Assembly: GCF_044324875.1 (NCBI RefSeq)
Contig: NZ_CP172185.1
DNA length: 64,000 nt
Reading direction: 5' to 3' (one strand)
From: Escherichia coli
Lineage (GTDB): Bacteria > Pseudomonadota > Gammaproteobacteria > Enterobacterales > Enterobacteriaceae
Shown here piece by piece: positions 7,725-58,073 of this stretch (positions are counted from its first letter, which is position 1; each line of letters opens with the position of its first letter). The notes below the pieces were generated by a model, which saw only the letters and a list, made by a program, of their open reading frames with translations, made no database searches and was not told the DNA's origin. The position numbers and the translations under genes are program-made.

Positions 7725-7847
7725 AGAGTGTACGCTTAACGATTGTTAATATGATAAATAGACTGAATGAATATCTTAACCTTATCAGACTGATGGGCTT
7801 CTTAACACCCTTATAAGTGTAAAGCCACGAAAACGGTTGCTGATTGC

Positions 7848-11599: not shown

Positions 11600-12794
11600 T
11601 ATTTACCCCCTCACGATCTAAAGCGCGCAGCAGCATTCCTTTCGAAATGATGCCGACATACTGTTGGTCCTCGTCGACCACGGGCACCGCACAGGGGGCC
11701 TGTCCGACATGAGAGAGCAACTCGCTAAGAGGCGTTTGTGCATCGACCGCTAACGGCGCATCAATCAGCGCCGCATCAAGACCTTGCTGCTGCGTTAACG
11801 CGGTTTTAAGCGAATCGATAGACACTGCGCCGACAAACTTATTACCGCGTTCGATGACGTAGCCATATTCGCGATCTTCATCCTGCAATAATTTCAATGC
11901 CGAACGCGGGCCGAAGCCGGGGGTTTTACGGATTAAGCCGTTCGGTGTCCGGCGAGCAATATCTTTCGCACTGAATACCTGACTAATATCGACGCCACGG
12001 AAGAAGGTACGGACATAATCATTCGCCGGATTATTGAGAATTTCATCCGGTGTGCCGACCTGTACCACTTCACCATTTTGCATAATGGCAATTCGGTCGC
12101 CAATACGCATAGCTTCATCGAGATCGTGGGAAATAAAGACAATTGTGCGCTGATGTTTCGCCTGTAATTTTACCAGCTCATCCTGCATCTCGGTGCGAAT
12201 TAATGGATCGAGTGCTGAGAAGGCTTCGTCCATTAATAATATATCCGGATTAATCGCTAACGCGCGGGCTAATCCCACACGTTGACGCATCCCGCCAGAG
12301 AGTTCATCCGGGTAGCTGTGGGCATAATTTTCCAGCCCGACCTGACGCAGTGCATCAAGGGCTTTTTCCCGGCGTTCTTCGGCATTAATTCCGGCCAATT
12401 CCATACCGAATGCAGTATTGTCCAGCACGGTCATATGCGGCATTAAGGCAAAGGACTGGAAGACCATCGCAATCTTTTTTCTGCGCACCTCACGGAGTTC
12501 GGCGTCGGATATTTTGGCAATATCCACACCATCAATCAGCACTTGCCCGCGGGTGGGTTCAATCAGGCGATTGAGAAGGCGTACCATTGTGGATTTACCC
12601 GAACCGGATAATCCCATGATGACAAATATCTCGCCTTCTTCAATGGCCAGACTGGCGTCTTTTACGCCAAGCGATAGCCCAGTTTTTTCCAGAATTTGTT
12701 CTTTTGAAAGTCCTTGTTCGATATATTTGAAAGCTCGCTGTGGATGCTCACCAAATATTTTATAAAGATTTTTAATTTCTAATTTAATTGCCAT
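11592..12794 (-). CDS. proV: Glycine betaine/proline ABC transporter ATPase with C-terminal CBS domains
   Basis: 400-aa ORF with Walker [13 protein letters not shown] signature LSGGMRQR and Walker [13 protein letters not shown]. Confidence 0.95.
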
Positions 12795-49250: not shown

Positions 49251-49420
49251 TCGGCCTGGCTTGTTTGCCATTTTGGCACCGGGGTGTGCTCGTCATCCTC
49301 ACGTACTGCGTGTACGCTCCGGTGACTGCGCGCACTCCGGCACCAAACTGGCTGCACCGCCGACGGCCTTTTACAGCAGAGTTAGCAACTGTTGATTGCA
49401 ATTTCCGCAAAAATGAGTAA

Positions 49421-49747
<327 letters not shown>

Positions 49748-51150: not shown

Positions 51151-51501
<351 letters not shown>

Positions 51502-51531
51502 GGTTTCGCTTAAGCGACATCCTGTTAAGAA

Positions 51532-51560
51532 GGGCTGGCCAATTGGCTGGCCCTTTTTTT
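51532..51560 (+). terminator. Intrinsic terminator of the rpsP-rimM-trmD-rplS operon
   Basis: GGGCTGGCCAATTGGCTGGCCC hairpin followed by TTTTTTT. Confidence 0.6.
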
Positions 51561-51577
51561 ATCTGTTTGCTCGTGTT

Positions 51578-52060
51578 TTAAGGGGTAGTAATCACCACTG
51601 CGACGCGGCGGTTCTCGGCGCGGCCCTGGGCGGTCTTGTTACTGGCTATGGGATATTTTTTTCCTAAACCCTGTGTGGTGAGATTGCTGCGCGGAATTTG
51701 TCCACCCATAGCCCATGCATCGGCCACGACATTCGCCCGTTTCAATGATAAGGCTTCGTTGTAACTGTCTTCACCATAGTTGTCGGTGTGTCCATCCATA
51801 CGGGCATGCGTTAGCCCTGTCGAGGCCAATTTGGCTGCCATGGTTTGGATCTGTTGCTGGCTTTCCGGGAGCAATTTGTAGTCATTTTTTGCGAACAGAA
51901 TGGCATCTGATAAGCCCAACGACCAGTCGCCGGCGGATTCAGTAAATCCATAAGATTGCATAGCGGCGACTTGCTCAGGAGTAAACTTTCCCTGAGGGGA
52001 CTGGCAGCCAGTCAGTATTAGCGAGGTGAAAATCAGGGGTACTACCAGGTGCTTTATCAT
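51578..52060 (-). CDS. yfiB: OmpA-family outer membrane lipoprotein YfiB
   Basis: 160-aa ORF with lipobox LTGC and C-terminal OmpA-like peptidoglycan-binding domain. Confidence 0.9.
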   Translation of the reverse strand: MIKHLVVPLIFTSLILTGCQSPQGKFTPEQVAAMQSYGFTESAGDWSLGLSDAILFAKNDYKLLPESQQQIQTMAAKLASTGLTHARMDGHTDNYGEDSYNEALSLKRANVVADAWAMGGQIPRSNLTTQGLGKKYPIASNKTAQGRAENRRVAVVITTP

Positions 52061-52075
52061 ATCGATATATCCTTG

Positions 52076-53302
52076 TTATCTCACCAGCTTTTCGGCACGC
52101 TGGTGTTTGGCCTGATACATATTGTGATCGGCCAGCTCTTGTAATTTTTCCGCAGAGGCATGCTCAATGGTCATCGCGTAACCAATGCTTAATGTCATGG
52201 TGGTCTGATGACCATTATGAAGATCAAACGGGCGATTAAAGATTTGTGTCAGTGCTGAGCAAATCCGCTGTACTTCGGATTCCGACTGTACACCAAAGAG
52301 GACCATCGCAAATTCATCGCCGCCTATGCGGTATGCTTTATGTTGCAGCCCGCCAAATTCAGCTAACCGTTTTGCTACCTCAATCAAGACACGATCGCCC
52401 GTCGCATGACCCCAGGTATCATTGATATATTTGAAATTATCGCCATCAAGAAATAGTAACGCCGACGTTTTTCGGGCGTCGGAACTGCTCATCAACGTGT
52501 TGATACCGCTACGAAACGCTGCGCGGTTAGCCAGCCCGGTTAATGGGTCATGTAGCGCGGTACGTAGAAGCTGCGCATTTTTGGCCTGTAAACGAAGCTG
52601 CCACTCTTCCATTTCATCCAGCAGACTGTTGAAGTCGAGTGCGAAGCGGTGAAATTCTGCAATGCGTTCTTCCGAAACTCGTCGGGAAAAATTGCGGTTG
52701 GAACGTACGTCATGCACGACATCGGTGATATTTTTCAATGCTTCCACCAGGCCATTGTGCAAATGGCGGGTGAGGGTAATTGCGATGCCTGATGCCAGCA
52801 GAATGCAGGCGGTCAGGACAGCGAGCGAAAACCAGATAAAATGGCTGATTGAACTGTCGCGAGCGGTTAAGCGTACTTCGCCAATGGTTTCACCATTGTG
52901 ACGAATCGGCTGAATGATGGGGGCAGGGAAGAGCCAGTGGCTTATGAAATTGCTTAAAGTATCGCCTGGATCCTTACGGGTGTAATGCCAGGATGCCAGA
53001 ATATTTTGCTGCTTATCACGTACTTCTGCAGTTGAAAATTGCCCTTGCTGGCCCAGCGCTGCCAGTGTTTCAGTTGCTGCAGGGCCATCGGCAAAAACGA
53101 CAGCTGCTTCCAGACTGTAAGTCATTGTTGCTGCTGTCAGTGCCAGGTTTTTTTGCGCGTACTGTTTCAGGGTCAGCACCGAGGTCACGGAAAGCAGCAA
53201 CCAGATCAGCATCATAGTGATAAATATGCTGGTCATACTGATGTTGCGTAATGCTCTTTTAAACGTGGGGCGCTTATTAAGAGAATTATCGTTATCCATC
53301 AT
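52076..53302 (-). CDS. dgcN: Diguanylate cyclase DgcN (YfiN): TM-HAMP-GGDEF
   Basis: 408-aa ORF with two TM helices and a GGDEF domain (active site RIGGDEF). Confidence 0.9.
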
Positions 53303-53810
53303 TTTTCTTCCGTGCGAGCATCAAGACATCCGGGTTGACCTTTACACCGCTACGCGATAAGGCATCCAGGTTTACGGCAAATCTGACGTCATTATTGTGG
53401 ATGATCAGACAAAAGGCGCTACCAATAATGCACTCGGTATTTTGTTCGGCAATTAATAATAACGCCTTTGACGGATATTGTTCGGTTAATTCCATCTGGA
53501 ATGTCGGTGACTCGTTGCCAAAATAAAAACCATTGCAGCCTGAAATCATCGCCTCTTGTTGAGTGTGAATGATGACAGGCAAATAAGGCAAAGATGTCGC
53601 GGCATTCTCTTGTAGGGCGGTACTAAAACGTGAAGATGAAAAGATACATAACTTTGGTGGCCCTGATAGCGCAGGCCAGCGGGTGTAACTGACAATACCG
53701 GAAACCATCATACGCACGTTTTTCGCAACGTCAGAAGGCTCCTGAGCGAGTATTGGTGCTCCCGTCAGCAGGAGAATCAGCAGTAAGAACAGTCGGTGAG
53801 AAAAACGCAT
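53292..53810 (-). CDS. yfiR: Periplasmic repressor of DgcN, YfiR
   Basis: 172-aa ORF with signal peptide, overlapping the dgcN start. Confidence 0.9.
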
Positions 53811-53956
53811 TCAGGGATCCTCACCATCTTCGCTCGAAATGCATCGATATTTTTTCAGAATGCTCATTAAAATATCATCCTTTCATGCGGTCGTCATCAA
53901 TGTGAGAAATAAAACATAATGAGTAAAATCTCATGCTTAATTTATTTGGGGGGTAA

Positions 53957-54322
53957 TTAATTTAATCGTATTGTGCTGGCATTTTCATCAGCCCCTTTTC
54001 GCCATACTTCATGCAGTTGGCTGGCATTTTCAACATTATTGCAGCTGGCAGGAAAGCTTTTACCAGAAAGTCCTCGGGCATAAGTAAAATCGGTCTGGCA
54101 AGTTTTCTTTTGTCCTTCGGCATATCCTTTAAGGTATAGACCGCGATCCGCCTGTGAATCGCTAAATGCATCGTCATCTTTTATGGCGCTGCCCGATATC
54201 GCATCTTCCATACCGACATCATACCAGTCGGTGCTGGTCAAGGTTGGCGCGTGAGTATAAGGATCAATCTGACATCCGCTAACCAGTAAAGCCAACAAGG
54301 GGGCGATAAACTTTTTCATCAT
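53957..54322 (-). CDS. yfiL: Lipoprotein YfiL
   Basis: ORF 53957..54340; start set at MMKKFIAPLLALLVSGCQ (lipobox), 121 aa. Confidence 0.8.
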   Translation of the reverse strand: MMKKFIAPLLALLVSGCQIDPYTHAPTLTSTDWYDVGMEDAISGSAIKDDDAFSDSQADRGLYLKGYAEGQKKTCQTDFTYARGLSGKSFPASCNNVENASQLHEVWRKGADENASTIRLN

Positions 54323-54367
54323 TTCTTTCTCCTTTTTCAAAGCATAGCGGATTGTTTTTAAAGGAGG

Positions 54368-54436
54368 TGTAAATTTATTTGTACGAAATAAGCATCAAAA
54401 GCGCGAGTAAATTGTTCCTGTAAAGAAAAATGTACG
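54368..54436 (+). promoter_or_regulatory. TyrR boxes in the aroF promoter region
   Basis: TGTAAATTTATTTGTACG (54368-54385) and TGTAAAGAAAAATGTACG (54419-54436) fit TGTAAA-N6-TTTACA with the G-N14-C core, about 100-160 nt upstream of aroF. Confidence 0.5.
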
Positions 54437-54530: not shown

Positions 54531-55601
54531 ATGCAAAAAGACGCGCTGAATAACGTACATATTACCGACGAACAGGTTTTAATGACTCCGGAACAACTGA
54601 AGGCCGCTTTTCCATTGAGCCTGCAACAAGAAGCCCAGATTGCTGACTCGCGTAAAACCATTTCAGATATTATCGCCGGGCGCGATCCTCGTCTGCTGGT
54701 AGTATGTGGTCCTTGTTCCATTCATGATCCGGAAACTGCTCTGGAATATGCTCGTCGATTTAAAGCCCTTGCCGCAGAGGTCAGCGATAGCCTCTATCTG
54801 GTAATGCGCGTCTATTTTGAAAAACCCCGTACCACTGTCGGCTGGAAAGGGTTAATTAACGATCCCCATATGGATGGCTCTTTTGATGTAGAAGCCGGGC
54901 TGCAGATCGCGCGTAAATTGCTGCTTGAGCTGGTGAATATGGGACTGCCACTGGCGACGGAAGCGTTAGATCCAAATAGCCCGCAATACCTGGGCGATCT
55001 GTTTAGCTGGTCAGCAATTGGTGCTCGTACAACGGAATCGCAAACTCACCGTGAAATGGCCTCCGGGCTTTCCATGCCGGTTGGTTTTAAAAACGGCACC
55101 GACGGCAGCCTTGCAACGGCAATTAACGCTATGCGCGCCGCCGCCCAGCCGCACCGTTTTGTTGGCATTAACCAGGCAGGTCAGGTTGCGTTGCTACAAA
55201 CTCAGGGGAATCCGGACGGACATGTGATCCTGCGCGGTGGTAAAGCGCCGAACTATAGCCCTGCGGATGTTGCGCAATGTGAAAAAGAGATGGAACAGGC
55301 GGGACTGCGCCCGTCTCTGATGGTAGATTGCAGCCACGGTAATTCCAATAAAGATTATCGCCGTCAGCCTGCGGTGGCAGAATCCGTGGTTGCTCAAATC
55401 AAAGATGGTAATCGCTCCATTATTGGTCTGATGATTGAAAGTAATATCCACGAAGGTAATCAGTCTTCCGAACAGCCGCGTAGCGAAATGAAATACGGCG
55501 TGTCTGTAACCGATGCCTGCATTAGCTGGGAAATGACCGATGCCTTACTGCGTGAGATCCATCATGATCTCAACGGGCAGCTGACGGCTCGCGTGGCTTA
55601 A
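54531..55601 (+). CDS. aroF: DAHP synthase, tyrosine-sensitive
   Basis: ORF 54462..55601; start set at [15 protein letters not shown] (356 aa). Confidence 0.95.
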
Positions 55602-57954: not shown

Positions 57955-57989
57955 ATCAATAAAAAAGGCCCCCCGATTTGGGAGGCCTT
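57955..57989 (-). terminator. pheA attenuator terminator
   Basis: Minus strand AAGGCCTCCCAAATCGGGGGGCCTT followed by TTTTTTATT, between pheL and pheA. Confidence 0.6.
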
Positions 57990-58025
57990 ATTGTTCGTCT
58001 TCGCATTCTGTTTCACACGACGAAA

Positions 58026-58073
58026 CGCCTCCCATTCAGGGGAAGGTAAAAAAGAATGCGAAGAAAAACGGTG
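58026..58073 (-). CDS. pheL: pheA leader peptide (Phe-rich, 15 aa)
   Basis: Minus strand ATGAAACACACACCGTTTTTCTTCGCATTCTTTTTTACCTTCCCCTGA translates to MKHTPFFFAFFFTFP with seven Phe codons. Confidence 0.85.

Follow-up and report, generated by a model that had tools for sequence, protein, structure and literature searches.

The minus-strand genes between positions 51578 and 53810 of the window, the whole 64,000-nucleotide stretch of Escherichia coli DNA analysed here, almost certainly constitute the E. coli yfiR-dgcN-yfiB operon, which is predicted from its sequence to encode the YfiBNR tripartite c-di-GMP signalling system. The locus is already known: it is a well-studied E. coli operon for a c-di-GMP cyclase under the control of envelope and redox stress, represented here by an ordinary allele, and nothing in it is new. 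A listing of open reading frames covering 48.5 to 57.5 kb of the window reproduced the four genes named in the preliminary description, together with their outer limits, and the position assigned to them, between a ribosomal-protein operon and aroF, was also borne out by the end of rplS on one side and the start of aroF on the other (Table 1). The mechanical reading frame of yfiL begins at a TTG codon at 54340, upstream of the ATG-based start used in the table. The genes yfiR, dgcN (yfiN) and yfiB are adjacent and co-oriented, in the same order as in K-12. All three had been described as overlapping, which is half right, because dgcN and yfiB are separated by a gap of 15 nt and the overlap is confined to yfiR and dgcN (11 nt, 53292-53302).

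Table 1. Positions of the genes and other sequence features in and around the yfi locus of the window
Feature	Position	Strand	Size	Remarks
ffh, then rpsP-rimM-trmD-rplS	rplS ends at 51501	+		flank on the yfiB side
Predicted intrinsic terminator of the rpsP-rimM-trmD-rplS operon	51527-51565	+		hairpin (51527-51558) with 14-pair stem, then T-run
yfiB	51578-52060	-	160 aa	ORF listing
dgcN (yfiN)	52076-53302	-	408 aa	ORF listing
yfiR	53292-53810	-	172 aa	ORF listing
Candidate yfiR promoter	53869-53897	-		conserved blocks in a 12-species alignment
yfiL	53957-54322	-	121 aa	ORF listing; counted from ATG
aroF-tyrA	aroF starts at 54531	+		flank on the yfiL side; pheA beyond
Phe leader	57959-58084			Rfam; with pheA, beyond aroF-tyrA

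How well does each product fit the system? First, the yfiR product contains a DUF4154 (YfiR/HmsC-like) domain (Pfam, E=5e-31), exceeds the cut-off of 85 bits for the NCBIfam equivalog "regulatory sequestration protein YfiR" with 168 bits, and matches the YfiR structures 4yn7/5y61 at E=1e-16. A hydrophobic, signal-like segment at residues 3-25 predicts that it is secreted, and its cysteines 55, 92, 127 and 134 do not vary across an alignment in which P. aeruginosa YfiR is included. Second, the dgcN product carries a CHASE8 domain at residues 45-146 (E=7e-34) and a GGDEF domain at residues 249-403 (E=2e-42), both, like the Pfam matches of the other three products, far over the gathering scores, and reaches 502 bits with the NCBIfam DgcN/YfiN equivalog (cut-off 325). 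The YfiBNR reading was not refuted, because the 408-aa reading frame has a GGDEF domain in which the motif RIGGDEF is intact, GGDEF itself being residues 327-331. Third, the OmpA domain expected in the yfiB product was found (Pfam, E=8e-18), and this protein passes the cut-offs of the NCBIfam YfiB equivalog models with 348 and 232 bits. It has the lipobox LTGC, with the cysteine at position 19 followed by glutamine at +2, and is predicted to be an outer-membrane lipoprotein; its alignment with the P. aeruginosa YfiB structures (4zhv/5eaz; E=1e-31) pairs C26, F48, W55 and GHTDNYG of the P. aeruginosa protein with identical residues. Pfam domains and NCBIfam equivalogs agree with the earlier reading of the three products as a repressor in the periplasm, a membrane-bound GGDEF cyclase and a lipoprotein resembling OmpA.

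Comparison with E. coli K-12 yfiR-dgcN(yfiN)-yfiB (b2603-b2605) revealed the same gene order, lengths, 11-nt overlap, 15-nt gap and flanking genes, and gene lengths and spacings are identical in the RefSeq annotations of K-12 MG1655 and strain 2012C-4221. The differences from K-12 amount to allelic variation, most of it within the 3′ half of dgcN and between the genes: YfiR is identical in amino acid sequence, YfiB has three amino-acid changes, and the yfiL-yfiR and yfiL-aroF spacers are about 92% identical. A 3.1-kb query was matched at 95-99% identity by 5425 of the 5426 complete E. coli genomes, and in all 5425 the locus is chromosomal and bears the same gene names. The exact DgcN and YfiB proteins have already been deposited as E. 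coli proteins, the former under the name DgcN, on 184 and 824 contigs, respectively. An Rfam scan of 47-59 kb returned the Phe leader only, and therefore no known RNA element lies within the locus; a search of the whole window for TyrR boxes gave three matches against 2.8 expected, which is no enrichment.

yfiL and the region upstream of yfiR

We found no evidence that yfiL, which the preliminary description had included in the c-di-GMP cluster, belongs to the signalling module, because its distribution is patchy and a conserved promoter-like motif lies between it and yfiR. It encodes a DUF2799 protein (Pfam, E=8e-19) that is a predicted lipoprotein (lipobox VSGC, Cys17), and we treat it as a separate gene next to the operon, a neighbour and not a demonstrated component. 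The distribution was determined in a synteny survey built on a YfiR alignment, with one genome per species, in which the neighbour genes of the window were placed by tblastn; its 80 loci comprise 68 from Enterobacteriaceae and 12 from outside the family (Lonsdalea, Serratia, Yersinia and Cupriavidus). Of the 68 Enterobacteriaceae loci with yfiR-dgcN-yfiB, 42 have yfiL and 26 lack it, the latter including all sampled Klebsiella, Raoultella, Kluyvera, Trabulsiella and Salmonella and a few species of Citrobacter and Enterobacter. Outside the family, it is absent within 8 kb of yfiR in all 12 loci.

We considered the alternative that yfiL is a functional fourth component, co-transcribed with yfiR-dgcN-yfiB and modulating the system in the envelope. 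The gene lies on the same strand as yfiR and only 146 nt upstream of it, no terminator-like fold or hairpin was found in that spacer, and the two keep company in Escherichia, most Citrobacter, Enterobacter and Lelliottia; moreover, as a predicted lipoprotein, YfiL would share the cell envelope with YfiB and YfiR. We nevertheless regard this alternative as unlikely, given that so many loci retain the operon and lack yfiL, and that the promoter-like motif between yfiL and yfiR is conserved and persists where yfiL is missing. In addition, yfiL is not mentioned in the study of E. coli YfiN at the division site (PMC4992967), and a whole-word literature search found no functional study of the E. coli gene. 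An equally slim chance attaches to the related proposal that YfiL, where present, might be a lineage-specific accessory that tunes YfiB/YfiR signalling and shares read-through transcription with yfiR.

The promoter-like motif between yfiL and yfiR was found in the 12-species alignment, in which the only strongly conserved blocks upstream of yfiR have the form aTGACg, 17 nt, TG-n-TATTTT. In the window, these correspond to a putative -35 element ATGACG (53897-53892), a 17-nt spacer ending in TGA and a putative -10 element TATTTT (53874-53869), approximately 55 nt upstream of the yfiR ATG. The blocks are invariant or nearly so, including in species and genera without yfiL, and we infer that they are a candidate promoter of yfiR. 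A scan with the promoter consensus detected no yfiR promoter, giving counts no higher than in shuffled sequence; the candidate was missed by that scan because only 8 of 12 positions match. An 18-codon reading frame, MSILKKYRCISSEDGEDP, whose TGA stop directly precedes the yfiR ATG, was also tried as a leader peptide and rejected as a conserved coding feature. A 28-codon version of this frame is found in two cryptic Escherichia lineages and in the K. oxytoca group; in E. coli, this longer version is interrupted by an in-frame stop, most Citrobacter lack a frame of this type, and Raoultella and K. pneumoniae have a different frame. The conserved nucleotides before yfiR are better explained by a putative promoter than by a leader peptide.

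The cyclase and its predicted control

From its sequence, DgcN is predicted to be an inner-membrane diguanylate cyclase comprising a first transmembrane segment (TM1), a periplasmic CHASE8/PAS-like domain, a second transmembrane segment (TM2), a HAMP-like linker and the GGDEF domain. The preliminary description had given this layout as TM-HAMP-GGDEF. The membrane segments and the cyclase domain stand, hydrophobic stretches being found at residues 20-46 and 150-179, on either side of CHASE8; the HAMP domain was not detected by Pfam and was only weakly recovered by profile alignment. Specifically, Pfam gave no HAMP match for the full protein or, even at E<=10, for the isolated linker, and the matches to Med29 and ZW10 obtained in these searches are spurious. 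A profile built from 14 family sequences of the linker found no HAMP-containing chain among the PDB sequences, its matches being the coiled stalk of a P. aeruginosa TpbB construct and chance hits. When the linker was aligned by hhalign with a HAMP profile made from six segments, each confirmed as HAMP by Pfam above the gathering score, residues 179-234 fell in register with the profile, although weakly (P=2e-4, probability 46%). This segment coincides in position with the span of 183-236 in the HAMP homology model of P. aeruginosa YfiN (PMC3375315). A HAMP domain in DgcN, which is the accepted annotation and a literature assignment, is thus plausible.

How might the three proteins act together? 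In the published model, YfiN is repressed by YfiR bound to its periplasmic domain; once YfiR misfolds under reducing conditions or is captured by YfiB at the outer membrane, the signal runs via TM2 and HAMP to the GGDEF domain (PMC3375315, PMC4992967). Repression by YfiR and its relief by YfiB have been shown experimentally with the P. aeruginosa and E. coli K-12 orthologues (PMC3375315, PMC4992967, PMC10127611). In the window, we established gene order, domains, motifs, orthology and distribution, and the mechanistic steps all come from the literature on these orthologues. By analogy, secreted YfiR would bind the CHASE8/PAS-like domain of DgcN and hold the cyclase off, until reducing conditions inactivate YfiR, a protein with four conserved cysteines, or peptidoglycan-binding YfiB captures it at the outer membrane. 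The freed DgcN would then undergo a conformational change, transmitted through TM2 and the HAMP-like linker, and its GGDEF domain would make c-di-GMP. DgcN has no RxxD sequence (I-site) five residues upstream of the GGDEF motif, in keeping with the description of YfiN as a cyclase without autoinhibitory I-sites (PMC10127611); c-di-GMP synthesis would therefore not be self-limited. Residues 66-70 form the patch AAVVF, which has been proposed as the YfiR-binding surface in P. aeruginosa YfiN (PMC3375315).

That this dgcN allele is degenerate and catalytically inactive, acting only via protein-protein contacts, for example with the divisome, is highly improbable: dgcN is indeed the most divergent gene of the neighbourhood (96.3% nucleotide identity to K-12, with a divergence peak at 52201-52400), and nine of the 11 amino-acid differences from K-12 DgcN lie within the GGDEF domain, but none falls in the motif, the changes are mostly conservative (I309V, L326I, Y336F and N272S), the Pfam match to the domain is full-length, the reading frame is kept intact over its whole length, and the same allele recurs on the 184 contigs mentioned above and is one residue away from the DgcN of strain 2012C-4221.

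The closest known systems are the K-12 operon, YfiBNR of P. aeruginosa and HmsCDE of Yersinia pestis. The YfiBNR system of P. aeruginosa (TpbB, PA1119-1121), the equivalent of AwsXRO in P. fluorescens, shares with the locus in the window the three-protein architecture, an AAVVF patch whose residue numbers coincide, the four cysteines of YfiR, the lipobox cysteine of YfiB with the equivalents of F48 and W55 and the peptidoglycan-binding motif, and a GGDEF domain without an I-site. The sequences have nevertheless drifted far apart, YfiR being 32% identical to its P. aeruginosa counterpart and DgcN and YfiB also substantially diverged. Unlike the P. aeruginosa protein, E. coli YfiN has additional reported roles in division arrest (PMC4992967) and growth arrest (PMC10127611): under envelope stress it moves to the division site and interacts with FtsZ and ZipA (PMC4992967), and on gluconeogenic carbon sources it can cause a growth arrest that most likely results from GTP depletion by run-away c-di-GMP synthesis (PMC10127611). 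A homologous tripartite system is HmsCDE of Yersinia pestis, which is redox-responsive (PMC5550408) and with which Pfam associates DUF4154 under the name "YfiR/HmsC-like". The R-N-B order recurs in three Yersinia loci recovered with the YfiR profile, in which YfiR is 34-38% and the cyclase 35-36% identical and the chromosomal neighbourhood is different.

Surroundings of the operon and the 3′ end of rplS

The neighbourhood of the operon is conserved within one family, at the level of the interval from aroF to rplS, and direct adjacency to the terminator of the trmD operon is a minority arrangement there. We conclude this because each of the 68 Enterobacteriaceae loci has the operon on that flank of the rplS operon which faces aroF (aroF itself was found upstream in 67), because direct adjacency occurs in 17 of the 56 loci with enough flanking sequence, and because neither aroF nor rplS is nearby in any of the 12 loci from Lonsdalea, Serratia, Yersinia and Cupriavidus. 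The placement beside the trmD terminator had been put forward as conserved. This applies within E. coli, in which the rplS-yfiB junction is intact in 5338 of 5425 genomes, and, among the informative species, in a minority of the Enterobacteriaceae; outside the family it does not apply. Adjacency was scored for yfiB, or for dgcN where yfiB is missing, and the taxa concerned are Escherichia, part of Citrobacter, Intestinirhabdus, Trabulsiella, K. indica, Entomohabitans and Salmonella diarizonae. The S. diarizonae locus has no yfiB, which is consistent with the reported absence of this gene from S. enterica (PMC4992967). In 33 of the 56 informative loci, a gene pair of approximately 2 kb encoding PepSY_TM and DUF2946 proteins lies between yfiB and rplS; homologues of the PepSY_TM gene were found in 47 loci overall. 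In five loci, rplS was not found over at least 5 kb; at that position, four have a P2/186-type integrase and a CI repressor, and the fifth has a CI repressor homologue only.

In the window, the T-run of the terminator ends 13 nt before the yfiB stop codon (51578-51580). Folding of the 81-nt spacer as read from rplS gave -28.9 kcal/mol (z=-4.1), a value that was not reached by any of 200 shuffled sequences; as read from yfiB, the hairpin is interrupted by a 2x2 internal loop, and its U-tract (CUUCUU) is poor. The hairpin and its T-run are thus predicted to be a strong terminator in the rplS sense.

A separate observation concerns the 3′ end of rplS. In E. coli TUM14697, a P2/186-like prophage of approximately 31 kb lies between rplS and yfiB, and a 13-nt repeat, GAGCGTCTTAACT, is common to both of its ends. 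The repeat corresponds to positions 51487-51499 of the window and covers the last four codons of rplS plus one base, the first, of its stop codon. From the phage end, rplS gains a new TGA stop codon and a phage-borne terminator hairpin, and the native trmD-operon terminator remains on the yfiB side of the prophage. Escherichia sp. E1V33 has the same breakpoint, and in Yokenella the GAGCGTCTTAACT motif adjoins an integrase. These arrangements suggest that the last codons of rplS are an attachment site of P2/186-like prophages; the window itself carries the site unoccupied.

Structures of the P. aeruginosa homologues have been solved for the GGDEF domain of TpbB/YfiN, for YfiR and for YfiB, and the mechanism of YfiBNR is published; the locus is a textbook c-di-GMP module and of little weight as a discovery. 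The value of this analysis lies in corrections: annotations should leave yfiL out of the system, the direct adjacency of yfiB and rplS is a minority arrangement among Enterobacteriaceae species, and the HAMP domain is not callable from Pfam. Its by-products are the conserved candidate promoter of yfiR and the exact 13-nt core of a putative prophage attachment site at the end of rplS. The literature searched contained no description of a prophage site at rplS/yfiB, and the 3′ end of rplS may be an undescribed site at which P2/186-like prophages swap the terminator of the trmD operon for their own.

Prophage integration at the end of rplS

We identified a short core sequence, GAGCGTCTTAACT, that constitutes an attachment site for P2/186-like prophages and is unoccupied in the present genome (see table). 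It covers the final four codons of rplS and extends into the stop codon. In E. coli TUM14697, both the new stop codon of rplS and its terminator are phage-borne, having been supplied by the integrated P2/186-like prophage. Among the five species loci that contain no rplS within 5 kb, four carry P2/186-type integrase and CI genes at the position where rplS is expected, and the remaining one carries CI only at that position. No published description of an attachment site at the end of rplS was found in the searchable literature. Of the 5425 E. coli genomes, about 87 have an interrupted junction between rplS and yfiB, in part through insertion sequence (IS) elements rather than a prophage.

Homologues of a PepSY_TM gene were found in 47 of the 68 Enterobacteriaceae loci. 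Paired with a DUF2946 gene, it lies between yfiB and rplS in the sampled Klebsiella (except K. indica), Raoultella, Enterobacter, Lelliottia, Kluyvera and Leclercia, as well as in some Citrobacter loci; Escherichia does not have this pair.

Coordinates of features at and around the yfi locus (window positions unless a comparison locus, L, is named)
Feature	Position	Strand	Remarks
Attachment core GAGCGTCTTAACT	51487-51499		rplS 3′ end; unoccupied
Core site, L084 (two copies)	7825-7837 and 39150-39162		
Corresponding region, L003	10234-10405		
Corresponding region, L048	about 12137-12170		
PepSY_TM (456 aa) and DUF2946 (152 aa) genes, L032	7291-9176	that of rplS	between yfiB and rplS
ORF MSILKKYRCISSEDGEDP, 18 codons	53811-53867	minus	stop codon abuts yfiR ATG
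Promoter-like motif, ATGACG, 17 nt, TG-n-TATTTT	53869-53897	minus	conserved; upstream of yfiR
Block AGATTT(A/T)ACT	about 53920-53935	minus	conserved; ~30 nt upstream of the promoter-like motif
TyrR-box-like sites, TGTAAA-N6-TTTACA	54368-54385 and 54419-54436		2 mismatches each; 208-nt divergent yfiL/aroF promoter region

Intergenic sequences

Upstream of yfiR, the promoter-like motif and the AGATTT(A/T)ACT block are both conserved from Escherichia to Klebsiella. The 18-codon ORF next to yfiR, MSILKKYRCISSEDGEDP, is unlikely to be a gene. Cryptic Escherichia lineages and members of the K. oxytoca group have a 28-codon version of it, which is unconserved in Citrobacter, Raoultella and K. pneumoniae. 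The aroF gene is under TyrR control, and the two TyrR-box-like sites, which are located near the yfiL start, fit that expectation; across the window, the pattern showed no statistical enrichment. The ffh-rpsP spacer (49251-49498) is 248 nt long, as in K-12, and 136 nt long in strains 2012C-4221 and TUM14697, a difference that is a 112-nt insertion/deletion polymorphism.

Allelic variation and occasional inactivation of the yfi genes

We observed that divergence from K-12 peaks in the 3′ two-thirds of dgcN (52200-52900), with 20 mismatches within 52201-52400. The neighbouring yfiR and rplS are 99-100% identical to those of K-12. This pattern suggests that dgcN is a mosaic or recombinant allele, one that is shared with strain 2012C-4221 at 99.5% identity. 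Moreover, IS3, IS1 or IS200C insertions are present in or beside yfiB, dgcN or yfiR in three E. coli genomes (H6, H12 and H34). Therefore, the YfiBNR system is occasionally inactivated in nature.
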